Of a stretch of 60,716 nucleotides of DNA, positions 3,003-23,432 are shown one piece after another. The position numbers were made by a program, and so were the translations under genes. How positions within the stretch are numbered: the first letter of the stretch is position 1; every line of letters starts with the position of its first letter. The DNA comes from Betaproteobacteria bacterium (lineage in GTDB: Bacteria; Pseudomonadota; Gammaproteobacteria; Burkholderiales; SG8-39). The notes beneath the pieces were generated by a model. That model searched no databases. It was not told the DNA's origin and saw only the letters and a program-made list of their open reading frames with translations. Location of the stretch: positions 1 through 60,716 of the forward strand of contig VBCH01000210.1 of the NCBI GenBank assembly GCA_005884455.1, read 5' to 3'.

Positions 3003-3018
3003 TGGCGAGAGGTGACCG

Positions 3019-6077: not shown

Positions 6078-7748
6078 ATGGCCTCCGACATCGAAATCGC
6101 ACAGAAGGCCAAGCTCGAGCGCATCTCCAAGATCGCTCTCGCGAAGCTCGGCATTCCCGAGCAGCACCTCGAGCCCTACGGGCATTTCAAGGCGAAGGTG
6201 TCGCTCGAATACTTGGACGGCCTCAAGACGCGCCCGAACGCGAAGCTCGTCCTGGTGACGGCGATGACGCCCACGCCCGCGGGCGAGGGCAAGACGACCA
6301 CCACGGTGGGGCTGGGCGATGCGCTCAACCACATCGGCAAGAAAGCGATGATCTGCCTGCGCGAGCCTTCGCTCGGACCCGTCTTCGGCATGAAAGGCGG
6401 CGCCGCCGGCGGCGGCTACGCGCAGGTGGTGCCGATGGAGGACATCAACCTGCACTTCACCGGCGACTTCAACGCCATCGCGCTCGCGAACAACCTGCTC
6501 GCGGCGATGCTCGACAACCACATCCACCACGGGAACGAATTGGGAATCGACGTGCGGCGCATCGCGTGGAGGCGGGTAGTCGACATGAACGACCGGGCGC
6601 TGCGCGACATCGTCGTGAGCCTGGGAGGTCCGGGCAACGGCTATCCGCGCCAGGACGGATTCGACATCGTGGTCGCCTCCGAGGTGATGGCGATCTTCTG
6701 CTTGTCCACCTCGCTCGACGATCTCAAGGAGCGGCTCGGCAAGATCGTGGTCGGCTACACGCGCGACCAGAAGCCGGTGCTCGCCCGCGATCTCCAGGCC
6801 CACGGCGCGATGACCGTGCTCCTGAAGGACGCAATCAAGCCGAACCTCGTGCAGACGCTCGAGAACAATCCCGCCTTCATCCACGGCGGGCCGTTCGCCA
6901 ACATCGCGCACGGCTGCAACTCCGTGATCGCGACGAGCTCGGCGATGAAGCTCGCAGATTACGTGGTCACGGAAGCGGGCTTCGGCGCGGACCTCGGCGC
7001 GGAGAAATTCATCGACATCAAGTGCCGCAAATCGGGCTTGCGCCCCTCCGCCGCCGTGATCGTCGCGACGGTTCGCGCGATGAAGTATCACGGCGGCGCC
7101 GATCTGAAAACCATCACCCAGGAAAACCTCGCGGCGCTTGAAAAAGGCGTCACCAACCTCGAGCGCCACGTCGAGAACGTGCAGAAGAACTACGGCATTC
7201 CCTGCGTGGTCTCGATCAACCGTTTCAACCAGGACACGCAGAAGGAGCTGGATCTGCTCAAGTCGCGGATCGAGAAACTCGGCGCCAAGGTCGTGCTCGC
7301 GACGCACTGGGGCGACGGCGGCAGGGGCGCAGCGGAGCTCGCGCGCATCGTGGTCGACCTCTGCGAGAGCAAAGGCAACTTCCAGTTCGTGTACGAGGAA
7401 CAAGACACGCTCTGGGACAAGATCAACAAGATCGCGAAGAAGATCTACCGCGCGAGCGAAGTGACCGCCGACGGAAAGGTGCGGGCCCAGATCAAGAAGC
7501 TGCAGGACGACGGCTACGGGCGCTATCCGGTGTGCGTGGCGAAGACCCAGTATTCCTTCTCGACCGATGCGCAGCTGCGCGCGGCGCCCTCGAACCACGT
7601 CGTCAACGTGCGCGAAGTGCGGCTGGCGGCGGGCGCCGAGTTCGTCGTGATGATCTGCGGGGATATCATGACGATGCCGGGGCTCCCCAAGGTGCCTTCG
7701 GCGGTCAAGATCGACCTCGTCGACGGGAAAGTCGTCGGACTGTTCTGA
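6078..7748 (+). CDS. fhs: Formate--tetrahydrofolate ligase
   Basis: [58 protein letters not shown]. Confidence 0.98.
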
Positions 7749-7785: not shown

Positions 7786-8520
7786 ATGCAAGAGCTTCTG
7801 ACGTCGCAGTTCTGGCTGGGGCTCGGGGCCATCATCTGGGTCAACATCATCCTGTCGGGCGACAACGCCGTCGTGATCGCGCTCGCGGCGCGCTCCTTGC
7901 CGTCGCACCAGCAGACGAAGGCGGTCATTTGGGGGGCAGGTGCGGCGGTGGTGCTGCGCATCGTGCTCACGATCGTCGCGGTCGAGTTGCTGAAGCTTTC
8001 CTACCTCAAGCTCCTGGGAGGCGTGCTGCTGCTCTGGATCGCGGTGAAATTGCTGGTTCCGGAGGATGACGGCGGCGACGGAATCAAATCGAGCTCCAAT
8101 CTGCTGGCGGCGATCAAAACCATCCTGATCGCGGATCTGGTGATGAGCCTGGACAATGTCATCGCGGTGGCCGCGGTCGCCAAGGGCAGCATCGTGCTGC
8201 TCGTGCTCGGGTTGCTGATCAGCATCCCGCTGGTGGTTTTCGGCGCTACCATGCTGATGAAGCTCATGGAGACCTATCCCGTGATCATCACCGTCGGGGC
8301 CGCGCTGATCGGCTATGTGGCGGGCGAGATGCTGGTGACTGACCCGGTCGTGATCGAGTGGTTCAGGGCCAACGCCCACTGGATGATCGACTTCGAGCTC
8401 TTTTCGGTCTTCGGCCGCAAGTTCGAGCTGTCGGTGGCCGGGCTGGCCGGCGCGCTCCTGGTCGTGGCGGTCGGAAAGTGGCTCGGCAGTCGAGAACCAA
8501 CCCAAGCCGGGAGAAGTTGA
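7786..8520 (+). CDS. TerC family (YjbE-like) integral membrane protein
   Basis: LSGDNAVVIALA and ADLVMSLDNVIAVA motifs; multiple TM helices. Confidence 0.9.
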   Translation: MQELLTSQFWLGLGAIIWVNIILSGDNAVVIALAARSLPSHQQTKAVIWGAGAAVVLRIVLTIVAVELLKLSYLKLLGGVLLLWIAVKLLVPEDDGGDGIKSSSNLLAAIKTILIADLVMSLDNVIAVAAVAKGSIVLLVLGLLISIPLVVFGATMLMKLMETYPVIITVGAALIGYVAGEMLVTDPVVIEWFRANAHWMIDFELFSVFGRKFELSVAGLAGALLVVAVGKWLGSREPTQAGRS

Positions 8521-8535: not shown

Positions 8536-8577
8536 TTGACCTCTGTCAAGGTTGCTTAAGGGGCTTGTGGCGATAAT
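8536..8577 (+). promoter_or_regulatory. Crp/Fnr-type box plus -10 element, tctCBA promoter
   Basis: Inverted repeat CCTTGAC-CTCT-GTCAAGG (core 8536-8549) and GATAAT (8572-8577). Confidence 0.7.
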
Positions 8578-8673
8578 CGACGCGCGAAATGCGGCAGGTG
8601 AATAAAATAGATGGAACCCGCCCGTGCTGATGGGGTCCATTCCGTTTGGTGTCCTGGCAATAGGAGGAGAGCG

Positions 8674-9687
8674 ATGCGCAACTTTACCGATCGCGACTGG
8701 CGCGGAACCACTGCGCTGACGCTGTTCGCCGCGGCCGCGGCCATGCCCACCCAGGCGCTTGCGGCCTGGGAACCCACGAAGACGGTGGAGTTCATCGTGC
8801 CCGCCGGCACTGGCGGGGGCGCCGATCAGATGGCGCGGATCATTCAAGGCATCATTGCCAAGAACAAGTTGATGAAGGAGCCGATGGTCGTTGTCAACAA
8901 GGCCGGAGGCGCGGGTGCCGAGGGCTTCCTGGACGTCAAAGAGTCGAAAGGCGATCCGCACAAGATCATCATCACCCTGTCGAATCTGTTCACGACCCCG
9001 CTTGCGACCAATACGCCGTTCAACTGGCGCGATCTGACGCCTGTTCAGATGATGGCCCTGGACAACTTCGTCCTATGGGTCAACGCGGAGACGCCCTACA
9101 AGACGCCCACGGAATACCTCGCCGCGGTCAAGGCCGGCGGCGGAAAGTTCAAGATGGGCGGGACGGGCTCGAAGCAGGAGGATCAGATCATCACCGTCGC
9201 TATCGAGAAACAGACCGGGGCCAAGTTCATCTACATTTCGTATCGCGGCGGCGGCGAAGTGGCGGTGCAGCTGGTGGGCAAGCACGTCGATTCGACGGTC
9301 AACAACCCGATCGAAGCGGTGGCCCAGTGGCGCGCGGGGTCGCTGCGGCCGCTGTGCGTGTTCGACGCCAAGCGCATGCCCTACAAGACGAAGATCACCA
9401 AGACGATGTCCTGGTACGACATTCCGCCGTGCAAGGACACCGGCCTCGACGTCGAATACCTGATGCTGCGCGGCATCTTCATGCCCGGTGGTGTGACCGA
9501 GGAGCACAAACAGTACTACGTCGACCTGCTGAAGAAGGTGCGGGAAACCCCCGATTGGAAGAGCTTTTTGGAGCAGGGCGCGTTCAACCAAACCACGTTG
9601 ACCGGGAAGGAATACGAAGCCTGGGTGGCGCGCGAGGAGGCGCGGCACATCCTGCTCATGAGGGAAGCGGGATTCCTGGCGAAGTAG
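8674..9687 (+). CDS. tctC: Tripartite tricarboxylate transporter substrate-binding protein (TctC/Bug)
   Basis: AGGAGGAG SD then ATG at 8674; signal peptide ending ALA; VPAGTGGGAD, NKAGGAG, YRGGGE. Confidence 0.92.
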   Translation: MRNFTDRDWRGTTALTLFAAAAAMPTQALAAWEPTKTVEFIVPAGTGGGADQMARIIQGIIAKNKLMKEPMVVVNKAGGAGAEGFLDVKESKGDPHKIIITLSNLFTTPLATNTPFNWRDLTPVQMMALDNFVLWVNAETPYKTPTEYLAAVKAGGGKFKMGGTGSKQEDQIITVAIEKQTGAKFIYISYRGGGEVAVQLVGKHVDSTVNNPIEAVAQWRAGSLRPLCVFDAKRMPYKTKITKTMSWYDIPPCKDTGLDVEYLMLRGIFMPGGVTEEHKQYYVDLLKKVRETPDWKSFLEQGAFNQTTLTGKEYEAWVAREEARHILLMREAGFLAK

Positions 9688-9762
9688 GATTGGGTGGACG
9701 CGAGGGGTAGGCACCCACGCGTCCAGAACCCCGCACTGCGGGACGGGCGGATCGAGGAGGGG

Positions 9763-10266
9763 ATGGAAAGCGAGCAACAACATTCGGCGGCATCGGTCAG
9801 GGCCGTGGAGATCGGTGTCGCCGTCGTCATATTCCTCTTCGGTGCCCTGGTCGTATTCGACAGCTACCGCCTGGGTGCCCGATGGGGAGACGACGGGCCG
9901 CAAGCCGGCTATTTTCCCTTTTATGTCGGCCTGTTCATCTGCGCCTCCGGCGCAGCGATCTTCGTCCGTGCTTTGCGAAACACGGCGTTCGCCGCCGAAT
10001 CGTTCGTGTCGCGCGAGGAGCTGAAGAAAATACTGACGGTTCTCGTGCCGACGATCGTGTATGTCTCCGTGATCGGGTATCTGGGTTTCTACGTCGCGTC
10101 CACGCTCTATATCGCCTACTTCATGTGGCACTTGGGTAAGTACGCCTGGTTCAAGATCGCGCCGGTCTCGATAGGCGTCAGCGTCGCGTTTTTTCTGATC
10201 TTCGAAATATGGTTCTCGGTGCCTCTTCCCAAAGGGCCGCTCGAGGCTGCGTTGGGACTCAATTGA
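9763..10266 (+). CDS. tctB: TTT small membrane subunit TctB
   Basis: About 4 TM helices, GPQAGYFP, C-terminal VPLPKGP; lies between tctC and tctA. Confidence 0.88.
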   Translation: MESEQQHSAASVRAVEIGVAVVIFLFGALVVFDSYRLGARWGDDGPQAGYFPFYVGLFICASGAAIFVRALRNTAFAAESFVSREELKKILTVLVPTIVYVSVIGYLGFYVASTLYIAYFMWHLGKYAWFKIAPVSIGVSVAFFLIFEIWFSVPLPKGPLEAALGLN

Positions 10267-10320
10267 GGGCCGTGGCGGCGGATTAGCTCGCCGGCGCTTG
10301 CGCTGGTAAGGGGAGGCTGA

Positions 10321-11832
10321 GTGGAGGAAATCAACGCGCTGCTGCAGGGGTTCGGGGTCGCGCTGTCCCCGCTCAACCTGCTGCTGATGTTCGTCGGGGT
10401 CGTCCTGGGCATCATCATCGGCGTGCTGCCTGGCTTGGGCGGCGCGAACGGCGTCGCCATCCTGCTGCCTCTCACGTTCTCGATGGCGCAGCAGCCCGGC
10501 GGCACGACCTCCGCGATCATCCTGCTCTCGTGCATCTATTGGGGCGCGCTGTTCGGCGGAGCGATCACGTCTATCCTCTTCAACATTCCCGGTGAACCCT
10601 GGTCGGTCGCGACCACTTTCGACGGCCACCCGCTCGCGCAGCTGGGGCGCGCGGGGAGCGCGCTGACGGCGGCGTTTACATCCTCGTTCATCGGGGCCCT
10701 GATCGCCGTGATCATGATCACGTTTCTCTCGCCCGTCGTGGCGGGTTTTGCGCTGCGCTTCGGCCCGCCGGAATTCTTCTCGGTATACCTGCTCACCTTC
10801 TGCGCCTTCGTCGGCATGAGCGGCGGCAACGCCGCGAAGACCATCGCTTCCATGATGATCGGGTTCGCGCTGGCCGCCGTCGGCCTGGACAGCGTCACCG
10901 GGACCCTGCGGCTCACGTTCGGATTCACCTCGCTCCTGAAAGGGTTCGATTTCCTGATCGCAGTGATCGGCCTCTTCGGCATCGGCGAAATTCTGGAGAC
11001 GCTCGAGGAAGGCCTCGCGTTCAAGGGAGCGAGCGCGCGGATCAACTTCAAGGTCGTGCTCGAAACGTGGAAAGAGCTGCCGCGCTACTGGGCGACCTCG
11101 CTGCGCAGCGCCGCGGTGGGTTGCTTCATGGGAATCGTGCCCGGCGGGGCGACGCCGGCCTCTTTCATGAGCTATGGCCTCGCGCGCCGTCTCTCCAAGG
11201 ACGGCAATGACTTCGGCAGCGGCAAGGTCGAGGGCGTCGTCGCTCCGGAGACCGCGGCTCACGCCGCCGGCACTTCGGCGCTCCTGCCGATGATCACGCT
11301 CGGGGTACCGGGATCGCCCACGGCCGCGGTGCTGCTCGGGGGCCTGCTGATCTGGGGACTCCAGCCCGGCCCGCTGCTGTTCGTCGAAAAACCGGACTTC
11401 GTGTGGGGACTGATCGCCAGCATGTATCTCGGCAACATAGCCGGCCTGATCGTCGTGCTGACCTGTGTTCCGCTTTTCGCCGCGATCCTTCGCATCCCCT
11501 TTTCGATCATCGCGCCCGTCATCATCGTGATCTGCGCGATCGGGGCGTACACCGTGCACAACTCGATGTTCGACGTCTATCTGATGGTCGCGTTCGGCGT
11601 GCTCGGCTATGCTTTCAAAAAGCTCGGCTATCCGCTCGCGCCGTTGGTGCTGGCGCTCGTTCTGGGCGACCGGGCCGAGGAAAATTTCCGCAACGCGATC
11701 AAGGGCTCCCAGGGCGATCTTCTGGTCTTCTTCTCGAACGGGCTGGTGGGAGGCCTGACCAGTCTCGCCTTGCTGCTGCTGTTCTGGCCGTTCATCCGTG
11801 CGGGTTGGCGGATGGTGCTCGGAAAAAGCTGA
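10321..11832 (+). CDS. tctA: TTT large membrane subunit TctA
   Basis: GVLPGLG, ILFNIPG, DGHPLA, APETAAHA, LGVPGS, GLQPGP. Confidence 0.95.
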   Translation: MEEINALLQGFGVALSPLNLLLMFVGVVLGIIIGVLPGLGGANGVAILLPLTFSMAQQPGGTTSAIILLSCIYWGALFGGAITSILFNIPGEPWSVATTFDGHPLAQLGRAGSALTAAFTSSFIGALIAVIMITFLSPVVAGFALRFGPPEFFSVYLLTFCAFVGMSGGNAAKTIASMMIGFALAAVGLDSVTGTLRLTFGFTSLLKGFDFLIAVIGLFGIGEILETLEEGLAFKGASARINFKVVLETWKELPRYWATSLRSAAVGCFMGIVPGGATPASFMSYGLARRLSKDGNDFGSGKVEGVVAPETAAHAAGTSALLPMITLGVPGSPTAAVLLGGLLIWGLQPGPLLFVEKPDFVWGLIASMYLGNIAGLIVVLTCVPLFAAILRIPFSIIAPVIIVICAIGAYTVHNSMFDVYLMVAFGVLGYAFKKLGYPLAPLVLALVLGDRAEENFRNAIKGSQGDLLVFFSNGLVGGLTSLALLLLFWPFIRAGWRMVLGKS

Positions 11833-11844
11833 AAACGGGCGCGC

Positions 11845-12450
11845 TCAGGCGGCCCGCTGCCTGAGGCGGGACAGGGTTTCCGGGGTCAGATTGAGGTAGG
11901 AGGCCAGCTCTTTCTTGGGTATGCGGCCGAGCAGGTCCTGGTGCTTGCGCATGAAGCGCGCAAGGCGACCGGGGGCGTCGAGCAGATGAAGCGTGATCGT
12001 GTGCGCCATCACCTCGGACATCAGCCGCATGACCTCGTATTCGAAGCGCAGCTTCATTTCGATGTGGCGTTCGAGGAACTCGACCCAGTGGGGCATGGAC
12101 AGGCGCGCCACGCGGACCTTGGTGACCGCCGCGATGCTGTAGGGGATGGGGGTCTTCATCCGCCACGCGGCGTAGGAGGTGTCCATGTCGGTCTCGGCCG
12201 CGAAGCGCAGGATCATCTCTTTTCCCTGGGGATTGCTCACGACGCGCTTCAGGATCCCGTCCAGGATGAAGAACTGCTCCATGCTCGTGCTGCCTTGGCG
12301 CACCAGCGCCTCGCCCTTCCGGTACTCTGCGACCTCCAGCAGCGGCTCCAGATCGTTCCAGGCGGACGCCGGCATTTCGCGCAGGATCAGGTTCTGCTTG
12401 AGCTGCAGCCGGATGGTGTTGCGCTGCGGGTGATTGACGATTGCCGACAC
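11845..12450 (-). CDS. Crp/Fnr family transcriptional regulator (no cysteines)
   Basis: N-terminal beta-roll ligand domain (KGEALVRQG...ILDG) and C-terminal [19 protein letters not shown] with the ETxSR recognition helix; GTG start. Confidence 0.92.
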
Positions 12451-12492: not shown

Positions 12493-12535
12493 TTGATCGC
12501 AGTCAAGGTGGAAAGGTCCTTAACAATCCTAGACT
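12493..12535 (+). promoter_or_regulatory. Crp/Fnr-type box plus -10 element, oxc-frc promoter (divergent from the regulator)
   Basis: TTGATCGCAGTCAA (12493-12506) and TAGACT (12530-12535); shares GGAATTATTGAT-N4-GTCAAG with the fdh promoter. Confidence 0.72.
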
Positions 12536-12594: not shown

Positions 12595-14394
12595 ATGGGA
12601 ACAGTCGAGGCGCAAGTCGCGACCGGTCAGGACGTGAAGAAGGGGAGCAGCGGCCAGATCGTCGCCAATGTGCAATCACAAGAATTGACCGACGGCTTTC
12701 ATCTGGTCATCGATGCCCTCAAGCTCAACGGCATCGACACGATCTTCGGTCTGCCCGGTATCCCGATCACCGATTTCACCCGCATCGCACAGGCCGAAGG
12801 GATGCGCGTGATTTCGTTCCGCCATGAGCAGAACGCCGGCAACGCCGCCGCCATCGCAGGCTTCATGACGCAAAAGCCCGGTATCTGCCTGACGGTGTCC
12901 GCCCCCGGCTTCCTCAACGGCTTGACGGCTCTCGCCAACGCCACCACCAATTGCTTCCCGATGATCCTTATCAGCGGCTCCTCCGAGCGGGAGATCGTGG
13001 ATCTCCAACAGGGCGACTACGAGGAGATGGACCAGCTCGCAATCGCCAGGCCGCTATGCAAGGCCGCCTTCCGCGTGCTGCACGCGGAGGACATCGGCGT
13101 GGGGATCGCGCGCGCGATCCGCGCCGCAGCCTCAGGCCGCCCGGGCGGCGTCTATCTCGACCTCCCGGCGAAGCTCTTCCCGCAGGCCCTCGACGCGGAG
13201 CTCGGGAAAAAGTCTCTGATCAAGGTGGTGGATCCAGCGCCCAAGCAGATTCCGGCGCCGGAGGCCGTCAGGCGTGCGCTCGAGCTCCTCAAGGGCGCGA
13301 AAAAGCCGCTGGTCATCCTCGGCAAAGGCGCGGCCTATGCGCAGGCCGACGCGGAGATCCGTTCCTTGATCGAGAAGACGGGCGTCCCGTACCTGCCCAT
13401 GTCCATGGCCAAGGGGCTGTTGCCGGATACGCATCCGCAGTGCGCTTCGGCTGCCCGCTCGTTCGTGCTGCCGGAGGCCGACGTGGTGATGCTCGTCGGC
13501 GCGCGCCTTAACTGGCTGCTCTCGCACGGCAAGGGCAAGACCTGGGGCGGCAAGGAGCACAAGGCGTGGGGCGGCCAGAAGTTCATCCAGATCGACATCT
13601 CGCCGCAGGAGATGGACAGCAACGTGCGCATCGACGCGCCCATGGTCGGCGACATCGGTTCCTGCGTGTCGGCGCTGCTCGCGGCGATTAACTCAACTGC
13701 GGGCTCGAGCTGGCCCAAGCCGCCGGCGGAGTGGCTGGGCGCGATCGCCGAGCGCAAGAACAAGAACATCGCGAAGCTGGCGGAGACCCTCGCCAAGAAT
13801 CCGACGCCGATGAGCTTCCACAGCGCGCTTGCCGTGGTGCGCGACATCGTCAAAGCCAACCCGGACGCGTGCCTCGTCAACGAAGGCGCCAACGCGCTCG
13901 ATTTCACCCGCAGCATCGTCGACATGTACAAGCCGCGCAAGCGCCTGGACGTCGGCACCTGGGGCATCATGGGCATCGGCATGGGCTTTTCGGTCGCCGC
14001 CGCCGTGGTCAGCGGCCAGCCGGTGATCGCGATCGAGGGCGACAGCGCCTTCGGCTTCTCCGGCATGGAAGTCGAGACGATATGCCGCTACAACCTGCCG
14101 GTCTGCGTGGTGGTCTTCAACAACAACGGCGTCTACCGCGGCACCGACGTCAATCCGACCGGCGGCCCCGACGTGGCGCCCACCGTGTTCGTCAAGAATG
14201 CGCGCTACGACAAGCTGATCGAGGCCTTCGGCGGCGTGGGCGTGCACGCGACGACCCCGGCCGAGCTGCGCAAAGCGATGGAAGAGGCCATCCGCTCGCG
14301 CAAGCCCACGCTCATCAATGCCGTCATCGATGAGAGCGCCGGCACCGAAAGCGGTCGTATCACCAGCCTGAACCCGAGCGCAAAAAAGAAATAG
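12595..14394 (+). CDS. oxc: Oxalyl-CoA decarboxylase (ThDP-dependent)
   Basis: AAGGAG SD then ATG at 12595; [51 protein letters not shown]. Confidence 0.97.
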
Positions 14395-14416: not shown

Positions 14417-15688
14417 ATGGAAGCTTTAAAGGGCGTACGCATCCTCGACCTGACCCATGTGCAGGCGGGGCCGACGTGTTCGCAGCTGCTCGCCTGGATG
14501 GGCGCGGACGTCATCAAATTCGAGAACCCACAGGGCGACGCGACGCGCGGCCAGCTGCGCGACGTCCCCAACGCCGACAGCCTGTACTTCACGATGCTCA
14601 ACTGCAACAAGCGCTCGATCACTGTCAACATGAAGAGCGCCGAGGGCAAGCAGGTGTTCGTCGATCTCCTGAAGAAGTGCGACATCATCATGGAGAACTT
14701 CGGCCCGGGCGTGCTCGATCGTTTCGGCTTCACCTGGGAGAAGATCCACGAGATCAATCCCAAGATCGTGATGGGCTCGATCAAGGGCTTCGGCTCGAGC
14801 GGCCCCTACGCCGACTTCAAGGCCTACGAGAACGTGGCGCAGGCGATGGGCGGCGCGATGAGCACGACCGGCGTACCCGACGGCCCGCCGTTCGTCACCG
14901 GCGCGCAGATCGGCGACTCGGGCACCGGCCTGCACCTCGCCATCGGCCTGCTGGCCGCGCTCAGGCAGGCCGACCGCACGGGCAAAGGCCAGTACGTCGA
15001 GGTGGCGATGATGGACGGCGTCATGAACCTGTGCCGCGTGAAATTCCGTGATCACCAGCGCCTCATGCGCGGCGATATGCCCGAGTATTCGGTCCCGACC
15101 TACAAGGGCATGGGCGATGTGCCGCGCGCCGGCAACGACTCCGGTGGCGGCCAGCTCGGCAATGCCATCCATTGCAAGCCGCACGGGGCGAACGACTGGC
15201 TCTACGTGGTGGTGCAGGAAGCGGTGTGGGAGGACCTCGCCAAGCGCATCGGGCCGGATGTGGGCATGCCCGACATGGCCAGCGATCCGCGCTTCGCGAA
15301 GATCGGTGACCGGCGCAAGAACCAGAACCTCATGTGGACGCTGATCAACAAGTTTGCCGAGAAGTACACCAAGCGCGAGCTCATGGCGATCCTGAATCCG
15401 CTGGACGTGCCCTGCGGCCCGATCATGAGCACACAAGACCTCGCGAACGACGAGCACGTCCATGGCCGCGACATGTGGGTCGAGCTTGACCATCCGCAGC
15501 GCGGCAAGTGGTGGAACGTCGGTATGCCGATCAAGCTCTCGGCATCGCCCGCGCTGATCAAGCGCAGCCCGACGCTGGGCGAGCACACCGACGAGGTCCT
15601 GAAGGAAGTCCTCGGCTACGACCAGGCGAGGATCAATTCCCTTAGGAGCGCGGGCGCGTTCTCGGTGCCGCCGAAGAAAGCGGCGTAG
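14417..15688 (+). CDS. frc: Formyl-CoA:oxalate CoA-transferase (CaiB/BaiF family III)
   Basis: HVQAGP, DSLYFTMLNCNKRS, ENFGPG, YENVAQ, GDSGTG (catalytic Asp), GGGQLG loop; adjacent to oxc. Confidence 0.95.
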   Translation: MEALKGVRILDLTHVQAGPTCSQLLAWMGADVIKFENPQGDATRGQLRDVPNADSLYFTMLNCNKRSITVNMKSAEGKQVFVDLLKKCDIIMENFGPGVLDRFGFTWEKIHEINPKIVMGSIKGFGSSGPYADFKAYENVAQAMGGAMSTTGVPDGPPFVTGAQIGDSGTGLHLAIGLLAALRQADRTGKGQYVEVAMMDGVMNLCRVKFRDHQRLMRGDMPEYSVPTYKGMGDVPRAGNDSGGGQLGNAIHCKPHGANDWLYVVVQEAVWEDLAKRIGPDVGMPDMASDPRFAKIGDRRKNQNLMWTLINKFAEKYTKRELMAILNPLDVPCGPIMSTQDLANDEHVHGRDMWVELDHPQRGKWWNVGMPIKLSASPALIKRSPTLGEHTDEVLKEVLGYDQARINSLRSAGAFSVPPKKAA

Positions 15689-15690: not shown

Positions 15691-16623
15691 TTGAAAATAG
15701 CCATCGTCGGCCAGCAGGATTTTGGCAAGGCGGTTCTCGAAGCCTTTCTCGCTCGTGGCGACGAGATCGCCGGCGTCTTCTGCGCGCCGGAGAAGGAGGG
15801 AGCGAAGGCCGATCCGCTCAAGGCAGCGGCGCTGGAAAAGGGGCTCAAGATCTTCCAGTTCCAGTCGCTGCGCAACAAGGAAGCGCTCGACGCGATGCGC
15901 GCGCTCAACGCCGACATCGGGATCATGGCCTTCGTGCTGCAGTTCGCGCCGCAGGAGTTCGTGAAGATCCCGAGGAAGGGCACGATCCAGTACCACCCGT
16001 CGCTCCTGCCGAAATACCGCGGGCCGAGTTCGATCAACTGGCCGATCATACGCGGCGACGCCAAGACCGGACTGTCCATCTTCCGCCCGACCGACGGATT
16101 GGACGAAGGCCCAGTGATCCTGCAGAAGGAAACGCCGCTCAGCGCGGATGACACGCTCGGCAGCGTCTATTTCGATCGCTTGTTCCCGATGGGGGTCGCG
16201 GCGATGATCGAGGCTGCAGATCTGGTGATGGCCGGCAAGCATCGCGAGACGGTTCAAGACGAGACCCGCGCGAGCTACGAAGGCTGGTGCCGCGCCGCCG
16301 AGGCGAAAATCAACTGGGCGAGCCACGTCGATTTCACTTACAACCTGATACGCGGGTGCAATCCGGCGCCGGGCGCCTGGACCACGCTGGGCGGAAAGAA
16401 ACTGCAGATCTTCGACAGCCGCAAGCATCTGTTCCGCACCTTCGGCGCGGTCAAGGGCAAGATCGGCGAGATTTCCGAGATCGGCGCGGCGAGTTTCTTC
16501 GTGACCGCTCAGGGCGGACGAATCGAAGTCCTCAAGGCAAAGCACGAGGACGGCAAGAAAGTATCCGCGGCCGAACTCGTAGCCCAGAACGGCCTCACTC
16601 CGGGCACGGTGCTCGGGAGCTGA
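15691..16623 (+). CDS. Formyltransferase resembling the N-terminal 10-formyl-THF hydrolase/transferase domain of ALDH1L1 (would usually be annotated as Fmt)
   Basis: MKIAIVGQ..FG, KADPL, YHPSLLPKYRG, DGLDEG, LFPMG, SYEG, IRGCNPAPGAW; TTG start 2 nt after the frc stop. Confidence 0.85.
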   Translation: MKIAIVGQQDFGKAVLEAFLARGDEIAGVFCAPEKEGAKADPLKAAALEKGLKIFQFQSLRNKEALDAMRALNADIGIMAFVLQFAPQEFVKIPRKGTIQYHPSLLPKYRGPSSINWPIIRGDAKTGLSIFRPTDGLDEGPVILQKETPLSADDTLGSVYFDRLFPMGVAAMIEAADLVMAGKHRETVQDETRASYEGWCRAAEAKINWASHVDFTYNLIRGCNPAPGAWTTLGGKKLQIFDSRKHLFRTFGAVKGKIGEISEIGAASFFVTAQGGRIEVLKAKHEDGKKVSAAELVAQNGLTPGTVLGS

Positions 16624-16855: not shown

Positions 16856-19429
16856 ATGACCAAAGCGGGCTTCTGGAAAAAAGACTGGTTTCTCTGCCTG
16901 GGGGTGTCGCTCGTGATGCTCGCGGCCGGCGGGACCCAGCTGATCGAGGCCCTCGAGCGCTTCGCGTACGACTGGGGTGTCCGGGCCTCGGCGCGAACCC
17001 CGTCAGACAAGATTTCGGTGATCGCGATCGACAAGCGCAGCATCGACAATATCGGTCGCTGGCCGTGGTCGCGCGAGGTCCATGCAAAGATGATCGAACG
17101 CCTCGCGGACGCGAAAGCCAAGGTCATCGGATACACGGTTTTTTTCTCTGAGCCGCAGCTCGATCCGGGCCTCGTCTATGTCAACAAGCTTCTCGAGGCC
17201 TACCAGCGTCTCGTGCCGGTGAACGCAGATCCGGGCGCGCCGCCCCGCGGCGTTTCGCCTGAGCTGCTTCAAATCGGCGCGACGCTGCAGGAAGCCGAGA
17301 GCGCGCTCAACACCGACAGGAAGCTCGCCGAGAGCTTCGCCAAGGCGGGCAACGTGGTGCTGCCGCTGCTGTTCACCTTCGGCGAGCCGCGCGGCAAGCC
17401 CGACAAGCCTCTTCCCGAATTCGTGCGCAAGAACGCGCTCTCGATCCAGGGCGGCAGTGGCGATCTGCCCCTCTTCACCAGCGCCGTCGAAGTGCCGATC
17501 GTTGACAGTCTGGGCGCCGCCGCAGCCGCGGTGGGGCATCTGAACTCGGTCCCCGACGTGGACGGAGCGATCCGCACCGAAGCGCTCGCGGTCACCTACT
17601 ACGATGAATACTACCCGTCGCTCGCGGTCATGATGGTTGCAAGGAGCCTCAATCTGACCGCCAAGGACATCAAGATCCGTCCCGGCGAAGCGCTGCAAAT
17701 CGGCAATTTCCGGGTGAGCGCGGATCCGACGATGCAGATGTTCACGTATTTCTACAAGGACCGGGAGGGCAGGCCGGCCATCCAGGAGGATTCGTTCTAC
17801 GACGTGGCGAGCGGCAAGATCCCGCTGGAAAAGTACCGCGACAAGATCGTGCTGATCGGACCGACCGCCGCCGGGGTCGGCAGCATATTCGTCACGCCGG
17901 TGAATCCGGCCATGCCGGCCGTGGAGCTTCAGGCGCATACGGTCTCGTCGCTCTTGCAGGGGCATTTTTTCGTCGCACCCACCTGGGGCTGGGTCGTCGA
18001 GAGGTCGGTTTATCTCCTGGTGGCGGTCTATCTGATCGCCTTGCTGCCGCGGCTTTCCGCCGGCGTCGGTGCCGTGGTCAGTGCCGGCATCGTGGCGGTT
18101 CTGATCGCCACGCACTTCGTGCTCATGACCGGCCAGGGCATGTGGCTGCAATTCATGCTGCCGGCCGCCTTGCTGGTCATCGGTCACGTGTTGCTCGTTA
18201 CAAAGCGCTTCGTCGTCACCGAGCGCGGGAAAGAGGTATCCGACGCGCAGTCGGCAGCCAACGCGCGCATGCTCGGCCTCGCGTTCCAGGGGCAAGGCCA
18301 GCTCGACATGGCTTTCGATTACTTCCGCAAGGTGCCGCTGGACGACACCCTCATGGATAACCTCTACAACCTTGCGCTCGACTTCGAGCGCAAGCGCCAG
18401 TTCAACAAGGCCGAAGCCGCATTCCGCTACATGGCCGACTACAACCCGAAGTTCCGCGATCTCGAAGCGAGGTTGTCGCGCGCCAGGCAGATGTCGGAAA
18501 CTCTCATCCTCGGCGGCGGGCAGACTCACCCCGGCGGGACCCTCGCGCTCGGGGGGGGCGCCGAGAAGCCTATGCTCGGCCGCTATCGGGTGGAGAAGGA
18601 GCTCGGCAAGGGCGCCATGGGCGTCGTGTATCTCGGCAAGGATCCGAAAATCGGACGCGTCGTGGCGATCAAGACCATGGCGCTTTCCCAGGAATTCGAG
18701 GCGGACGAGCTCGCCGAGGTGAAGGAGCGGTTCTTCCGCGAAGCCGAGACCGCAGGGCGTTTGAGCCACCCGAACATCGTGACCATCTTCGACGCGGGCG
18801 AAGAGCACGATCTGTGCTACATCGCGATGGAACTCCTGAAGGGTCAGGATCTGGTGCCGTTCACCAAACCAGGCAGCACGCTCTCGACCGACAAGGTCGT
18901 CTCGATCGTGGCGAGAGTGGCCGACGCGCTCGGCTACGCGCACAGGCAGAACGTGGTGCACCGGGACGTGAAGCCGGCCAACGTCATGTACGAGCCTGAA
19001 AGCGACACCGTCAAGGTGACCGATTTCGGAATTGCCCGCATCACGGATTCGTCCAAGACCAAAACCGGAATGGTGCTCGGCACGCCGTCCTACATGTCGC
19101 CGGAACAGCTCCAGGGCAAGAAGATCGACGGGCGCAGCGATCTGTTCTCGCTGGCGGTAAGCCTGTATCAGCTTATTTGCGGCAAACTACCGTTCGAGGG
19201 GGATTCGATGGCGCAACTCATGTTCAGGATCGCGAATGAAGATGCGCCCGATATCCTGCAATTCCACCCGTCCCTGCCGCCGGCTCTGGTCGCCTTCCTT
19301 GACAGGGCGATGGCCAAGGACGCGGGCGAACGTTACCAGACAGGCGAAGAATTCGCGGGCTCATTGCGAAGGACTGTGGGCGGTCCTTCCGCCGCGGCGG
19401 TCGGCGTCGGGGTCGACATCAGCCTGTGA
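16856..19429 (+). CDS. Membrane Ser/Thr protein kinase: CHASE2, 3 TM, TPR-like linker, Hanks kinase
   Basis: IAIDKRS...GRWPWSR (CHASE2); LGKGAMGVVY, VAIK, HRDVKPAN, DFG, GTPSYMSPEQ. Confidence 0.95.
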   Translation: MTKAGFWKKDWFLCLGVSLVMLAAGGTQLIEALERFAYDWGVRASARTPSDKISVIAIDKRSIDNIGRWPWSREVHAKMIERLADAKAKVIGYTVFFSEPQLDPGLVYVNKLLEAYQRLVPVNADPGAPPRGVSPELLQIGATLQEAESALNTDRKLAESFAKAGNVVLPLLFTFGEPRGKPDKPLPEFVRKNALSIQGGSGDLPLFTSAVEVPIVDSLGAAAAAVGHLNSVPDVDGAIRTEALAVTYYDEYYPSLAVMMVARSLNLTAKDIKIRPGEALQIGNFRVSADPTMQMFTYFYKDREGRPAIQEDSFYDVASGKIPLEKYRDKIVLIGPTAAGVGSIFVTPVNPAMPAVELQAHTVSSLLQGHFFVAPTWGWVVERSVYLLVAVYLIALLPRLSAGVGAVVSAGIVAVLIATHFVLMTGQGMWLQFMLPAALLVIGHVLLVTKRFVVTERGKEVSDAQSAANARMLGLAFQGQGQLDMAFDYFRKVPLDDTLMDNLYNLALDFERKRQFNKAEAAFRYMADYNPKFRDLEARLSRARQMSETLILGGGQTHPGGTLALGGGAEKPMLGRYRVEKELGKGAMGVVYLGKDPKIGRVVAIKTMALSQEFEADELAEVKERFFREAETAGRLSHPNIVTIFDAGEEHDLCYIAMELLKGQDLVPFTKPGSTLSTDKVVSIVARVADALGYAHRQNVVHRDVKPANVMYEPESDTVKVTDFGIARITDSSKTKTGMVLGTPSYMSPEQLQGKKIDGRSDLFSLAVSLYQLICGKLPFEGDSMAQLMFRIANEDAPDILQFHPSLPPALVAFLDRAMAKDAGERYQTGEEFAGSLRRTVGGPSAAAVGVGVDISL

Positions 19430-19445
19430 GCTTCGTTGAAGCATC

Positions 19446-20270
19446 ATGACTTTATCGGGAGCGCTTGAAGTCGCGAGTTGTACCGATCCCGGAATGGTCA
19501 GGTCCCATAACGAGGACTCGATCGCGTCGGATGGGGATCAAGGCCTCGTCGTGTTGGCCGATGGTATGGGGGGATACAACGCGGGCGAGGTGGCGAGCGG
19601 CATGGCCACGACGGTGATCATCACCGAGCTGCAGCAGCTGCTGGAGAAGAGAGTTCCATACGAGATCGACGCACACAGCGGCCAGCTCGTCGCGCACCAA
19701 CTGTTGCACGAACAGATCGCCAAGGCGAACACGTCGATCTATCAGGCCGCACAGAGCCAGCCTCAGTATGCCGGCATGGGGACGACCTTGGTCGTCGCCC
19801 TGTTCTACGACAACAAGATGACCGTCGCGCACATCGGAGATTCGCGGCTGTACCGGCTGCGCGGCGGCGAGCTGCGGCAGGTCACCAAAGATCATTCGCT
19901 TCTCCAGGAGCAGATCGACAGCGGCGTGATCACACCGCAACAGGCCCGGCAGTCCCAGAACAAGAATCTGGTTACGCGCGCGCTCGGTATCGATCCGATC
20001 GTCGAAGCGGAGATCCACGACTACGAGACGCAGCCGGAAGACATTTATCTCCTCTGTTCGGACGGCCTTTGTGATATGGTGAGCGACGACGACATCGGCC
20101 TCGCGCTGCAGACGCTCAGCTCCAACTTGAAACTATGTGCGCAGCATTTGGTGCAAACGGCCAATGATAACGGGGGCCGAGACAATATTTCGGTAATACT
20201 GGTCCGGGTGCTGCGGGACTACCCCGCACCGCGCAGCATCGTGGGCAAGATGATGAGCTGGTTCAAATAG
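19446..20270 (+). CDS. PP2C-type Ser/Thr phosphatase (Stp1/PppA family)
   Basis: RSHNED, ADGMGG, HIGDSR, LCSDGL, GGRDNI. Confidence 0.95.
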   Translation: MTLSGALEVASCTDPGMVRSHNEDSIASDGDQGLVVLADGMGGYNAGEVASGMATTVIITELQQLLEKRVPYEIDAHSGQLVAHQLLHEQIAKANTSIYQAAQSQPQYAGMGTTLVVALFYDNKMTVAHIGDSRLYRLRGGELRQVTKDHSLLQEQIDSGVITPQQARQSQNKNLVTRALGIDPIVEAEIHDYETQPEDIYLLCSDGLCDMVSDDDIGLALQTLSSNLKLCAQHLVQTANDNGGRDNISVILVRVLRDYPAPRSIVGKMMSWFK

Positions 20271-20301
20271 CTTGAAATAGTTTGAGCAGAGGGATACTGC
20301 T

Positions 20302-21078
20302 ATGGCGAAGCTGATACTCAGTATGGACGGCCTGGTCCTCAAGGAGATCGCCCTGACCAAGGAACGTACCACCATCGGCCGCAAGCCACACAACGACATC
20401 CAGATCGACAATCTGGCAGTGAGCGGGGAACATGCCGTCATCGTCACCATCCTGCAGGACTCGTTTCTCGAGGATCTCGGCAGCACCAACGGCACCGTGG
20501 TCAACGGACAGCCGATCAAGAAGCACTTCCTCCAGAACAACGACATCATCGAGCTCGGCAAGTACAAGCTGAAGTACGTGAACGAAGCCGTGGCGGGGCA
20601 AGCCAAGGCAGCGGACTTCGAGAAGACCATGGTGCTCCGCCCCGGTTCGGTGAAGGCGGCTACCGCGGCGCCTGCCGCCTCCGCGCCGGCCGGCGCCGCA
20701 GCGGCGGCCCCTGTGGCGGCTGCCGCAGGCGCAAGAAATTTAAGCGACACCGTCGCAGGCCAAACTGCGACGGCCGCACCGGTCGCCCCCCCTAAGCCGG
20801 CAGCCGCGCCTCAAAAAAATGCGGCGCTGCAGCTTCTCTCCGGGGCGAATGCCGGCAAGGAGCTCGATCTCACCAAGCCGCTCACGACACTCGGTAAACC
20901 CGGCGTCCAAGTGGCCGTCATCACGCGCCGGCCACAGGGCTTTTTCATAACCCACGTAGAGGGGGCAAGCTTTCCGGTGGTGAACGGCAAGACCCTCGAC
21001 GCCCAAGCGCACTCCTTGAACGACCATGACGTGATCGAACTTGCCGGGGTCAAGATGGAATTCTTCCTCAAGACCTGA
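20302..21078 (+). CDS. Double FHA-domain protein with Ala/Pro-rich linker
   Basis: First FHA is near-canonical (IGR, VSGEHA, DLGSTNGT); linker with EKTMV and Ala/Pro runs; second FHA is degenerate. Confidence 0.92.
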   Translation: MAKLILSMDGLVLKEIALTKERTTIGRKPHNDIQIDNLAVSGEHAVIVTILQDSFLEDLGSTNGTVVNGQPIKKHFLQNNDIIELGKYKLKYVNEAVAGQAKAADFEKTMVLRPGSVKAATAAPAASAPAGAAAAAPVAAAAGARNLSDTVAGQTATAAPVAPPKPAAAPQKNAALQLLSGANAGKELDLTKPLTTLGKPGVQVAVITRRPQGFFITHVEGASFPVVNGKTLDAQAHSLNDHDVIELAGVKMEFFLKT

Positions 21079-21113
21079 GCCTCGGCTCCTCAGACCCGAT
21101 CCCGGGAGGAAGA

Positions 21114-23432
21114 CTGAAGCAGCACATCGTCCGGATCGCGCTCGGCCTGCTGGTAGTTCTGGTATTCGTAGGCCACGTCGTAGGAAATGCCTACAAGAGC
21201 TACCGCATCGGATTCATCAACCAGCTCGACCACATCATCTACGACTACCGGCTCCGGCTGACCATGCCGGGCACGCCCGACGACCGTATCGTCATCCTCG
21301 ACATCGACGAGCGCAGCCTGGATTCCCGAGCGCTCGGCCGCTGGCCTTGGAGTCGCGACAAGATCGTTGCACTGCTGCAAAAGCTTTTCGACAAATACGG
21401 CGTGCTCATAATCGGCTTGGACGTCGTATTTGCCGAACCCGACGAGAGCTCAGGCCTGCCGGTGCTCGAGAAGCTGGCCGGGACCCGGCTGAAGGACGTA
21501 GGGCCGTTCCAGTCGGCCCTGAAGGAATTGCGCCCGGCGCTCGACTACGACGCGAAGTTCTCGAATTTTCTCCGCGGCCGTCCGGTGGTTCTCGGCTACT
21601 ACTTCAATAGCGAAGAAAATGCGGTGGAAAACGGATCCCTTCCGGAGCCTGTTTTCCCGCCAGGCACGTTTGCCGGCAGGAAAATCGACTTCTTCGCGTG
21701 GAAAGGCTACGGCGCCAACTTGCCCGAGTTTGCCAAGGTAGCCAACGCCGGGCATTTCAACTCACGCGTGGACGATGATGGCGTGTCGCGGCGGGTTCCG
21801 ATGCTCGTGGAATACCCGCAACGCAACGGCAGCTACTACGAAGCCCTGTCGCTCGCGGTAGTGCGCCTGTATCTGGGCATGAAGGAAGCAGCTCGCGGCA
21901 AGATCGACACGGTTACCTTGCCCAAGGTAATCCCGGGGACGAACCCCGACCGCTTCATCTCCAAGACCTACACCGGTTTGGAGTGGCTTGAAGTCGGGCC
22001 GCTCAGAATCCCGGTAGACGATGAAGTCACCGCGCTGGTTCCCTATCGCGGTCCAAGGGGCAGCTTTCCGTATATTTCGTTTGCCGATATATGGTCGGAC
22101 AAAGTGCCGGTGGAAATGCTGAAGGGAAAGATCGCCTTGATCGGCGCTTCTGCCCCGGGCCTGTTCGATCTTCGCTCGGCCCCGGTGGGGGAGGGCGAGA
22201 CCTCCTCCGGGGTCAGGAAGGAAGGCAATGTCTATCCCGGGGTCGAGATTCACGCCAACCTCATCGCCGGGATACTCGACGGCAAACTGAAGCACAAACC
22301 GCCTTACATGCTCGGAGCGGAGCTGTTGGTGCTTGTCCTCGGCGGTATCGTGCTCGCCTTGCTCATACCGATGCTCGCGCCGCTTTGGGCCACCGCGACG
22401 ACGGTGACCGGGATGGCGCTCATCACGCTGTTCGACCTGTGGATGTGGTCCTACGCGGGCTTGGTGCTGCCGCTTGCCGCCTCAGTGCTCATGATAGTGA
22501 CCTTGTACACGGTCAACATGGCCTACGGATATTTCGTCGAGACGCGCTCGAAGCGCCAGTTCGCCGAGTTGTTCGGGCAATATGTGCCTCCCGAGCTTGT
22601 GGGCATCATGGCGGAAGACCCCGAGCAGTACACCATGGCGCCGAAGAGCACCGATCTCACGATACTATTTTCCGATGTGCGCGGCTTCACCAGCATATCG
22701 GAAGCGCTGAGTCCCGAGCACCTTCGCGAATACATCAACGAGTACCTCACCGACATGAGCAATATCATCCGCGGCAAGCACCGCGGCACGCTCGACAAGT
22801 ACATCGGCGACGCGATCATGGCCTTCTGGAACGCTCCGGTGGAAGATAAAGATCACCCGCGCAGCGCGGTTCTTGCGGCCCTGGAGATGCAGCGCGAGTG
22901 CGGTATGCTGAACAAGAAATTCACCGCGCGCGGCTGGCCGACCCTCAAGATCGGCATCGGCGTCAACACGGGGAACGTCCGGGTCGGGGACATGGGATCG
23001 AAGGAACGCAGGGCGTACACCGCGATGGGAGATGCCGTCAACGTCGCTTCCCGGCTGGAAGGGCGCACCAAGTACTACGGCGTGGGGATACTCGTCGGGG
23101 AAACAACGCGGACGCTGGTGAAGGACGTGGTTTTCAGGGAGATCGACAAGATCAAGGTGAAGGGCAAGGACGAGGCAATCACGATCTACGAGCCAGTGGG
23201 ACTGGAGTCCGAGGTCGAGAGGAAGGTTCTGGACGAGCTCAAGCTCTGGCACCAGACGATCAGGTCTTACCGCTCCCGCCAATGGGATCAGGTGGAGGTC
23301 AACCTCCTCAACCTCCTGCGCATGAACCCCGGGTGCGCTCTCTACGAGTTGTACGCGAAGGAAGTGGCGGTCAAGCGCAGAAACCCACCGCCAGCCGAAT
23401 GGGCAGGCGTTACCGTTTTCGACGAGAAATAA
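21114..23432 (+). CDS. CHASE2 class III adenylate cyclase; start probably CTG at 21114 (or 21075), upstream of the ORF-track ATG at 21264
   Basis: In-frame N-terminal TM (KQHIVRIALGLLVVLVFV) precedes 21264; CHASE2 (GRWPWSR), 3 TM, FSDVRGFT, DKYIGDA (Lys, ATP-specific), YTAMGDAVNVASRLE, VKGK. Confidence 0.93.
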   Translation: MKQHIVRIALGLLVVLVFVGHVVGNAYKSYRIGFINQLDHIIYDYRLRLTMPGTPDDRIVILDIDERSLDSRALGRWPWSRDKIVALLQKLFDKYGVLIIGLDVVFAEPDESSGLPVLEKLAGTRLKDVGPFQSALKELRPALDYDAKFSNFLRGRPVVLGYYFNSEENAVENGSLPEPVFPPGTFAGRKIDFFAWKGYGANLPEFAKVANAGHFNSRVDDDGVSRRVPMLVEYPQRNGSYYEALSLAVVRLYLGMKEAARGKIDTVTLPKVIPGTNPDRFISKTYTGLEWLEVGPLRIPVDDEVTALVPYRGPRGSFPYISFADIWSDKVPVEMLKGKIALIGASAPGLFDLRSAPVGEGETSSGVRKEGNVYPGVEIHANLIAGILDGKLKHKPPYMLGAELLVLVLGGIVLALLIPMLAPLWATATTVTGMALITLFDLWMWSYAGLVLPLAASVLMIVTLYTVNMAYGYFVETRSKRQFAELFGQYVPPELVGIMAEDPEQYTMAPKSTDLTILFSDVRGFTSISEALSPEHLREYINEYLTDMSNIIRGKHRGTLDKYIGDAIMAFWNAPVEDKDHPRSAVLAALEMQRECGMLNKKFTARGWPTLKIGIGVNTGNVRVGDMGSKERRAYTAMGDAVNVASRLEGRTKYYGVGILVGETTRTLVKDVVFREIDKIKVKGKDEAITIYEPVGLESEVERKVLDELKLWHQTIRSYRSRQWDQVEVNLLNLLRMNPGCALYELYAKEVAVKRRNPPPAEWAGVTVFDEK

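Follow-up and report, generated by a model that had tools for sequence, protein, structure and literature searches.

A stand-alone ALDH1L1-type formyltransferase in bacterial oxalate gene clusters is a candidate link between formyl-CoA and the folate pool

We describe a formyltransferase gene, here called FT, that directly follows frc, the gene for formyl-CoA:oxalate CoA-transferase (Frc), in an oxalate/formate gene cluster of a Betaproteobacteria bacterium. Its product belongs to a distinct clade of stand-alone enzymes resembling the N-terminal domain of ALDH1L1, and we propose that it reversibly converts 10-formyl-tetrahydrofolate (10-formyl-THF) and coenzyme A (CoA) to THF and formyl-CoA. 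We put the probability of this reaction, in either direction, at roughly 0.6; the choice of CoA as the acceptor, the reversibility, the direction and the metabolic role would each follow from genomic context and from precedents among known enzymes. The gene lies in a 60,716-nucleotide (nt) stretch of DNA, referred to below as the window (GenBank assembly GCA_005884455.1, contig VBCH01000210.1). The window lies on contig C16 of a 3.6-Mb metagenome-assembled genome (MAG; 311 contigs, 96% complete) whose close relatives are Burkholderiales MAGs. FT and the two genes preceding it are as follows.

12595 to 14394, plus strand: oxc, oxalyl-CoA decarboxylase (NF006721, 1007.9 bits; cut-off, 557)
14417 to 15688, plus strand: frc, formyl-CoA:oxalate CoA-transferase (TIGR03253, 561.3 bits; cut-off, 504.2)
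15691 to 16623, plus strand: FT, stand-alone FDH-N-like (ALDH1L1-N-type) formyltransferase of 310 amino acids, with a TTG start

The frc stop codon TAG (15686-15688) is followed by the letters ct and then by the TTG of FT at 15691, leaving a gap of 2 nt, and a purine-rich GAAGAAAG is located about 10 nt 5′ of the FT start. Past the FT stop codon, a 232-nt intergenic gap containing a weak terminator-like hairpin and a promoter-like site separates FT from a CHASE2 Ser/Thr-kinase gene. Because of the 2-nt gap on one side and the 232-nt gap with its hairpin and promoter-like site on the other, oxc-frc-FT looks like one operon. The true start of oxc is ATG 12595, which is preceded by an AAGGAGA ribosome-binding site. 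In a soil metatranscriptome-library run, contigs from an approximately 91%-identical relative span the frc-FT junction (926 nt), and one other extends past FT into the kinase gene. This RNA support is weak: the contigs cannot prove a single transcript, the libraries may hold DNA, and the sampled-word shares are ≤0.10. An earlier reading of the DNA letters (the original prediction) had reported the open reading frame, the 2-nt gap, a series of motifs, a likeness to ALDH1L1 and an upstream box shared with fhs, the gene for formate-tetrahydrofolate ligase (Fhs). These observations are confirmed, and all of the quoted motifs, namely (M/L)KIAIVGQQDFG, KADPL, YHPSLLPKYRG, DGLDEG, LFPMG, and YEG, were found in the FT translation.

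Public sources name FT proteins "methionyl-tRNA formyltransferase" (Fmt), and several lines of evidence place them elsewhere. The Pfam domains Formyl_trans_N (PF00551; E value of 1.1e-29, 103.9 bits) and Formyl_trans_C (PF02911; 3.3e-14, 53.3 bits) were both detected above the gathering score, and no other Pfam domain was found in FT. On the NCBIfam fmt equivalog TIGR00460, FT scored 153.7 bits, which is under the cut-off of 201.5. The best matches in a sequence search of the PDB were the hydrolase domains of ALDH1L1 (E values of 4.6e-58 for human and 4.4e-57 for rat, ranging to 1e-54), with E. coli Fmt (8.8e-38), ArnA (∼1e-27), and HypX (4.9e-7) ranking lower. Together with the fmt score, these values bear out the claim that FT is nearer to ALDH1L1 than to Fmt. 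The MAG holds four Formyl_trans_N genes: FT, purN, an arnA-type sugar formyltransferase gene beside arnC, and a true fmt (309.9 bits) that directly adjoins def.

The catalytic residues of FT are His102, Ser104, and Asp138. The matching His/Ser/Asp is invariant in 54/54 aligned rows and is also present in the 26 linked or fused FTs that were checked; the corresponding triad of 10-formyl-THF dehydrogenase (FDH, also known as ALDH1L1) is His106/Ser108/Asp142 (PMC6802093). Two positions before the catalytic His, FT has Gln100. The residue at this position is Gln in 15/16 rows of the query subclade, Asn in 10/10 Fmt rows, and Ile, Cys, Ser, or Val in ALDH1L1. Following the G-R motif, 10/10 Fmt rows have an insertion of 5 residues that FT and ALDH1L1 lack. 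In Fmt, this basic loop contacts the tRNA acceptor arm. The AlphaFold model of FT (pLDDT, 95.8; pTM, 0.90) has a two-subdomain fold. Two other features were rejected as discriminators: overall fold, since the TM-scores to Fmt structures (0.88-0.93) equal or exceed those to the ALDH1L1 N-domain (0.82-0.86), and the net charge of the C-terminal domain, which does not separate FT from Fmt and for which some representatives have frameshifted tails.

To place FT phylogenetically, 1.84 billion representatives were searched with FT, yielding 555 proteins at an E value of ≤1e-30. The trees were quick maximum-likelihood IQ-TREE runs of 54 and 74 rows with SH-aLRT (Shimodaira-Hasegawa-like approximate likelihood ratio test) support only. 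Representatives shorter than 280 amino acids were left out, as were 15 rows that were truncated, frameshifted, or bore a foreign N-terminal extension and 5 further poor or long-branch rows. Stand-alone bacterial proteins and ALDH1L1 N-domains form a 63-row clade (SH-aLRT of 99) that excludes Fmt and ArnA. A 21-row subclade of it encloses the ALDH1L1 N-domains (8 rows, support of 100), and FT falls in a separate 32-row clade (SH-aLRT of 99). The latter contains all of the frc-linked FTs that were added, the FT portions of FT-Fhs fusions, which split over two distinct subclades, and that of an FT-Oxc fusion. Phylogeny was among the checks that the original prediction had proposed, and it groups FT with the ALDH1L1-N-type proteins and not with true Fmt. 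The fmt score, the PDB matches, the absence of the insertion, and the trees thus agree on a stand-alone ALDH1L1-N-type enzyme. The public annotation, by which FT would be a second methionyl-tRNA formyltransferase, has in its favor the name itself and the high TM-scores to Fmt structures. It is barely credible, however, because FT scores under the fmt cut-off, a true def-fmt pair is located elsewhere in the MAG, the Fmt insertion loop and Asn are absent, and FT sits in a separate, well-supported clade.

One argument for the proposed reaction is the linkage of FT to frc and oxc. Among close relatives (the best 80 of 458, with 74-97% identity), frc is located directly 5′ of FT in 70 of the 72 loci with ≥1300 nt of DNA before FT; the median gap is 16 nt, and the two loci without an adjacent frc are L041 and L065. 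In the 53 close-relative loci long enough to show it, oxc is upstream in 42. The linkage was also examined in 401 evenly drawn Pseudomonadota genomes, including the MAG itself. Eight of these carry FT at a score of ≥263 bits, and the next tier, at 142-155 bits, includes true def-fmt-rsmB loci. An frc above cut-off is present in 22/401 genomes; FT was found in 8/22 frc-positive genomes versus 0/379 frc-negative ones, a set that includes the unpublished genome G383 (Fisher p = 2e-11, with the caveat that related genomes are not independent). The FTs of the seven other carriers are 44-62% identical to that of the window and come from six families. The arrangement oxc-frc-FT recurs in 5/7, and their contexts are as follows.

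crp-oxc-frc′-frc-FT: two genomes
oxc-frc-FT: two genomes
tctCBA-oxc-frc-FT-fhs: one genome
FT alone beside a LysR gene, ∼6 kb from oxc-frc: one genome
fhs-FT, with frc on another contig: one genome

Synteny and co-occurrence thus bear out a wide and tight association of FT with frc and oxc, and a lack of genomic association is not what the data show. Some individual loci depart from the common pattern. L105 (G298) and L106 (G238) are from complete genomes of 1.7-1.9 Mb in which two tandem frc paralogues precede FT, fhs is missing, and PurU is present; both paralogues score above the TIGR03253 cut-off and share 49% and 56-57% identity with the Frc of the window. In L109 (G395:C46), fhs-FT is found with DUF2817, polysaccharide-deacetylase-family, isochorismatase-family, and GATase genes, and frc is on a different contig. 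Just 3′ of FT or fhs, L047, L048, L054, and L210 encode a distant family-III CoA-transferase (31-34% identity to Frc) that might use a different CoA donor.

The same contexts bear on whether FT could formylate something other than CoA, such as the phosphopantetheine of a carrier protein, another thiol, or an amine metabolite of oxalate/formate metabolism. The ALDH1L1 N-domain uses protein-bound phosphopantetheine and not free CoA (PMC8748788, PMC6802093), and in one carrier the neighbors of fhs-FT are not frc but amidohydrolase-type genes (DUF2817, polysaccharide deacetylase). Still, no carrier-protein gene is present in the annotated parts of the cluster, although the related-locus comparison queried window proteins only and could not detect one. 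In addition, formyl-CoA is the only formyl thioester known in the oxalate pathway, the FT clade is bound to that pathway, the only one with formyl-CoA among its intermediates, and frc adjacency is near-universal in the clade. We therefore consider another acceptor very unlikely.

A second association, with Fhs, is apparent from gene fusions. A search limited to proteins of 544-2000 amino acids returned 63 long homologues (protein clusters) at an E value of ≤1e-40, of which 48 combine FT and FTHFS (Fhs) domains. In the two that were scanned, P0277 and P0273, FT occupies residues 1 to ∼300 and is joined to a complete Fhs (NF010030, 952 and 940 bits, covering profile positions 2-557 and 3-557, respectively). 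In 36 FT-Fhs proteins longer than 850 amino acids, a Pro/Ala/Lys-rich linker of ∼25-45 residues leads, with no Met, into the "SDIEIA" start of Fhs, and for one cluster member (P0335) there are 56 contigs on record, of which the longest has 3.16 Mb. Given the Met-free linkers, the complete Fhs, and the 56-contig record, we regard the FT-Fhs proteins as genuine fusions. A transcript of the diplonemid Namystynia karyoxenos (P0322, eukprot) encodes, in a single 920-amino-acid open reading frame, FT (residues 8-306) and an Oxc-type thiamine pyrophosphate (TPP) enzyme that scores 586.8 bits on NF006721 (cut-off, 557) and falls under the TIGR03254 cut-off. One further long homologue is an ALDH1L1-like protein. 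Nine others combine Frc and FT; the four that were scanned (P0275, P0281, P0324, and P0331) have a truncated or gapped Frc, and these four were attributed to merged calls of neighboring genes and not counted as fusions.

Unfused FT and fhs genes are also neighbors. A metagenome scan with P0277 returned mostly Fhs-only loci; FT adjoins fhs in 11 loci, and in each of these FT ends at a stop codon and the two genes are unfused. In 8/8 of these loci with enough upstream DNA, frc is directly 5′ of FT, and oxc or another TPP enzyme gene precedes frc; tctCBA, which encodes a tripartite tricarboxylate-type transporter, and fdh, which encodes formate dehydrogenase, are often nearby. Two genomes in a sample of 381 alphaproteobacterial genomes have the order tctCBA-(TPP or oxc)-frc-FT-fhs, with fdh after fhs in one and upstream, beside tctCBA, in the other. 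The TPP enzymes encoded 5′ of frc-FT-fhs in L209 (6929-8644), L120, L129, L159, and L163 are only 25-29% identical to the Oxc of the window. That of L209 scores 479 bits as PRK05858-like (under the cut-off), 341 as 2-hydroxyacyl-CoA lyase, and 244 as Oxc, and enzymes of this non-canonical type may be a different source of formyl-CoA. In one genome without FT (G200:C1:1747457-1750617), fhs directly follows frc; linkage of frc to fhs thus also exists without FT.

Across the 401-genome sample, fhs is present in 81 genomes, including 5/8 FT carriers and 6/14 frc-positive genomes that lack FT. The original prediction that FT works with Fhs is therefore sustained in part: the fusions, the FT-fhs adjacency, and a common upstream box (see below) favor it, but Fhs is not an obligate partner, since 3/8 carriers do without fhs. 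PurU, the formyl-THF deformylase, was scored in six genomes (G238, G298, G256, G156, G072, and this MAG, G000), with the carriers G076 and G395 outside this comparison. The three carriers without fhs (G238, G298, and G256) have PurU; in this MAG, G156, and G072, fhs is present and no PurU above the cut-off was found.

These distributions bear on whether FT could simply be a 10-formyl-THF hydrolase, similar to PurU or to the isolated ALDH1L1 N-domain, that gives formate and free THF whenever the folate pool is overloaded by Fhs during growth on oxalate or formate. The isolated ALDH1L1 N-domain is indeed called a hydrolase domain (PDB titles; PMC6802093), and the lack of PurU above the cut-off in this MAG, G156, and G072 would leave room for such an activity. 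Plain hydrolysis is nevertheless quite unlikely, because a hydrolase fused to or co-expressed with Fhs would amount to a futile ATP-burning cycle and because true PurU coexists with FT in 3/5 carriers tested. It would also leave unexplained both the adjacency to frc and the confinement of FT to frc-positive genomes (8/8 versus 0/379).

In the described oxalate pathway, Frc and Oxc lead to formate or glyoxylate, and a folate-dependent formyltransferase is not among the steps (PMC13409138, PMC12927642). In the accessible portions of these two papers, the word "formyltransferase" has 0 occurrences, and the origin of the first formyl-CoA or oxalyl-CoA and the replacement of thioesters are unstated. 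The Frc/Oxc cycle conserves exactly one thioester and so can neither start itself nor replace formyl-CoA that is hydrolyzed or oxalyl-CoA that is reduced to glyoxylate. By stoichiometric reasoning, a net ATP-driven source of thioesters would solve the start-up problem and both kinds of loss.

The proposed reaction could provide such a source. The ALDH1L1 N-domain passes the formyl group of 10-formyl-THF to the thiol of 4′-phosphopantetheine (PMC6802093, PMC8748788), and CoA is a plausible acceptor for FT because it carries the same phosphopantetheine arm. FT would use His102/Ser104/Asp138 as the ALDH1L1 N-domain does with the phosphopantetheine thiol. It would be co-transcribed with Oxc and Frc and would share a Crp/Fnr-box regulon with TctCBA, Fhs, and an NAD-linked formate dehydrogenase. 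Fhs would convert formate, ATP, and THF to 10-formyl-THF, FT would convert 10-formyl-THF and CoA to formyl-CoA, and Frc would convert formyl-CoA and oxalate to oxalyl-CoA and formate. The net reaction of Fhs and FT would be formate + ATP + CoA ↔ formyl-CoA + ADP + Pi, and with Frc the three enzymes would constitute an ADP-forming, formate-catalyzed route to formyl-CoA and oxalyl-CoA. This route would start the Frc/Oxc cycle and replace the thioester lost by formyl-CoA hydrolysis or by biosynthetic withdrawal of oxalyl-CoA. The simplest explanation of an FT-Fhs fusion is that the two parts catalyze consecutive reactions with THF/10-formyl-THF as the common intermediate. Since the FT clade is tied to a formyl-CoA pathway and is fused to a maker of 10-formyl-THF, Fhs and FT together would supply formyl-CoA. 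More tentatively, Fhs, FT, and Frc may form an ADP-forming activation system in which THF and formate are catalytic; this system may be the missing net source of CoA thioesters in oxalotrophs, and the FT-Fhs fusions may be single-polypeptide formyl-CoA synthetases. We offer this fuller scheme as possible rather than probable.

The same reaction could instead be used in reverse (formyl-CoA + THF → 10-formyl-THF + CoA), bringing oxalate-derived one-carbon units into folate without the ATP spent by Fhs, while another CoA donor replaces the thioester. This is a sub-case of the proposed reaction, and the probability given at the outset spans both directions. Reverse use is thermodynamically easier and fits the carriers without fhs better. 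It would suit the persistence of FT in the oxc and tandem-frc operons of the two complete 1.7-1.9-Mb genomes without fhs, where the second frc paralogue could use another CoA donor. The FT-Oxc fusion of the diplonemid transcriptome likewise joins FT to a producer of formyl-CoA. On the other hand, a fusion of two 10-formyl-THF producers, as FT and Fhs would then be, gains nothing, and by stoichiometric reasoning every formyl group diverted costs a thioester needed for the next oxalate. We consider reverse use unlikely. The same reasoning removes one element of the original prediction, by which oxalate carbon entering the folate pool would allow ATP recovery by Fhs running backwards: the single thioester of the Frc/Oxc cycle activates the next oxalate, and such recovery has no steady state.

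Several observations weigh against the supply of formyl-CoA by FT. The reaction would be assigned to the FT clade from context and precedents, and FT is only remotely related to the N-domain of HypX (E value of 4.9e-7; TMq of 0.65-0.68). The formation of formyl-CoA from 10-formyl-THF is mildly uphill. FT is absent from 14/22 frc-positive genomes of the sample; the Frc/Oxc pathway thus works without FT, which is an accessory and not a core component. With 3/8 FT carriers (G238, G298, and G256) lacking fhs, supply driven by Fhs cannot be universal. For true FT-Fhs fusions, neither the metagenome scan nor the 381 alphaproteobacterial genomes nor the order of G477 yielded a DNA locus. The FT-Oxc fusion is known from one transcriptome assembly, that of a protist with bacterial endosymbionts. 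No oxalyl-CoA reductase was identified. The MAG, which is 96% complete, encodes malate synthase; neither RuBisCO nor a glyoxylate carboligase above the cut-off was found in it. The best glyoxylate-carboligase-like match of the MAG, at window positions 49391-51118, is the large subunit of acetolactate synthase 3 (NF005409, 1069 bits).

The proposed partners of FT are encoded upstream of oxc in the window, where boxes of the Crp/Fnr type precede several of the transcription units, as follows.

1209 to 1222, plus strand: box TTGATGCCTGTCAA, upstream of the fdh operon
1257 to 5826, plus strand: NAD-linked formate dehydrogenase, comprising a NuoE/NuoF-like subunit (1257-3002) and the alpha subunit (3019-5826; TIGR01591, 769.2 bits; cut-off, 666.25)
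5983 to 5996, plus strand: box TTGATTTCCGTCAA, upstream of fhs
6078 to 7748, plus strand: fhs, formate-tetrahydrofolate ligase (NF010030, 907.8 bits; cut-off, 652)
7786 to 8520, plus strand: TerC/YjbE-family membrane protein, after fhs
8536 to 8549, plus strand: one-mismatch box TTGACCTCTGTCAA, upstream of tctC
8611 to 11832, plus strand: tripartite tricarboxylate-type transporter, comprising tctC (8611-9687), tctB (9694-10266), and tctA (10321-11832)
11845 to 12450, minus strand: Crp/Fnr-family regulator with a cyclic nucleotide (cNMP)-binding domain and HTH_Crp_2, divergent from oxc
12493 to 12506, plus strand: Crp/Fnr-type box TTGATCGCAGTCAA, upstream of oxc

The exact pattern TTGAT-N4-GTCAA occurs in 7 copies in the 3.6-Mb genome, compared with 0 and 1 for the reversed-pattern control, and 3 of the 7 are in the window, before the fdh operon, fhs, and oxc. 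With up to one mismatch allowed, the window has 9 boxes versus 1.99 expected, a number reached in 0/100 shuffles. A relaxed form of the box is present within 260 nt 5′ of oxc in 36/43 related loci, of fhs in 5/6, and of tctC in 4/5. The exact copies at 12493 and 5983 substantiate the earlier observation that the oxc operon and fhs have the same upstream box. The adjacent Crp/Fnr-family protein, whose gene is kept beside oxc in related loci, is a candidate binder of the box, and TctCBA, which is conserved within the cluster in related loci, is a putative oxalate uptake system. Many related loci likewise have a TerC/YjbE-family gene between fhs and either tctC or crp. Directly 3′ of FT, four signaling genes (16856-23432) code for two CHASE2 proteins, a Ser/Thr kinase and an adenylate/guanylate cyclase, together with a PP2C phosphatase and an FHA protein. 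In most close relatives, FT keeps the kinase and PP2C genes as neighbors, and the location of a cyclase near the cNMP-binding Crp-type regulator of oxc may be more than coincidence.

The original prediction spoke of an undescribed branch of oxalate metabolism. The chemistry proposed for FT is not itself new: LctF carries it out in vitro (PMC11730586), and it has been put forward for the N-domain of HypX (PMC6802093). What is new is a distinct and widespread clade, its FT-Fhs fusions, the metabolic role proposed for it, and the fixed place that FT occupies among the clustered oxalate/formate genes of Alpha- and Betaproteobacteria. The literature covered, which left most subscription journals outside its scope, yielded no paper connecting FT with frc or oxc. 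If the proposed reaction is correct, a step connecting formyl-CoA with the folate pool is added to a globally important route of carbon in soil and freshwater. The placement of FT would correct a widespread misannotation as methionyl-tRNA formyltransferase and makes the animal ALDH1L1 N-domain a member of a large bacterial family of stand-alone enzymes. Formyl-CoA is the entry metabolite of formyl-CoA-based synthetic pathways. If the Fhs-FT route operates as proposed, it would provide synthetic one-carbon biology with a natural ADP-forming conversion of formate to formyl-CoA, for which the FT-Fhs fusions are ready candidates.

Among known systems, PurU (TIGR00655) acts on 10-formyl-THF and has the Formyl_trans_N core in common with FT, but FT scores 22.5 bits against the PurU cut-off of 285.95 and has no ACT domain. 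Fmt (TIGR00460) has the same Pfam domains and overall fold as FT, which differs in not being encoded beside def, in scoring under the equivalog cut-off, and in lacking the 5-residue insertion and the Asn. The ALDH1L1 N-domain (PDB 2bw0, 1s3i, and 4qpd) is the best sequence match of FT (E value of 4.6e-58; Foldseek E value of 8.8e-36, TMq of 0.86), and the two have the same two-subdomain fold and His/Ser/Asp triad and likewise lack the Fmt insertion. Whereas ALDH1L1 is a three-domain protein of ∼900 amino acids, FT ends at a stop codon after 310, with no carrier or aldehyde dehydrogenase domain. FT is also bacterial and encoded in an oxalate operon, belongs to another subclade, and has Gln instead of Ile, Cys, Ser, or Val two positions before the catalytic His. 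The N-domain of HypX (PDB 6j0p and 6j1f), which functions in the synthesis of the CO ligand of [NiFe]-hydrogenase, has been proposed to pass the formyl group from 10-formyl-THF to CoA (PMC6802093) and has a formyltransferase fold, as does FT. It is remote from FT (E value of 4.9e-7, TMq of 0.65-0.68, 16-17% identity), is fused to a decarbonylase resembling enoyl-CoA hydratase, and has Asp in place of the catalytic Ser. LctF, from lactacystin biosynthesis in Streptomyces, has been shown in vitro to formylate CoA with 10-formyl-THF as the donor, giving formyl-CoA (PMC11730586). Unlike FT, it serves secondary metabolism, feeding the acyltransferase of a polyketide synthase, and its authors report 32% identity to Fmt (PMC11730586). 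LctF is described as a stand-alone Fmt-like formyltransferase, and its reaction is the one that we propose for FT.

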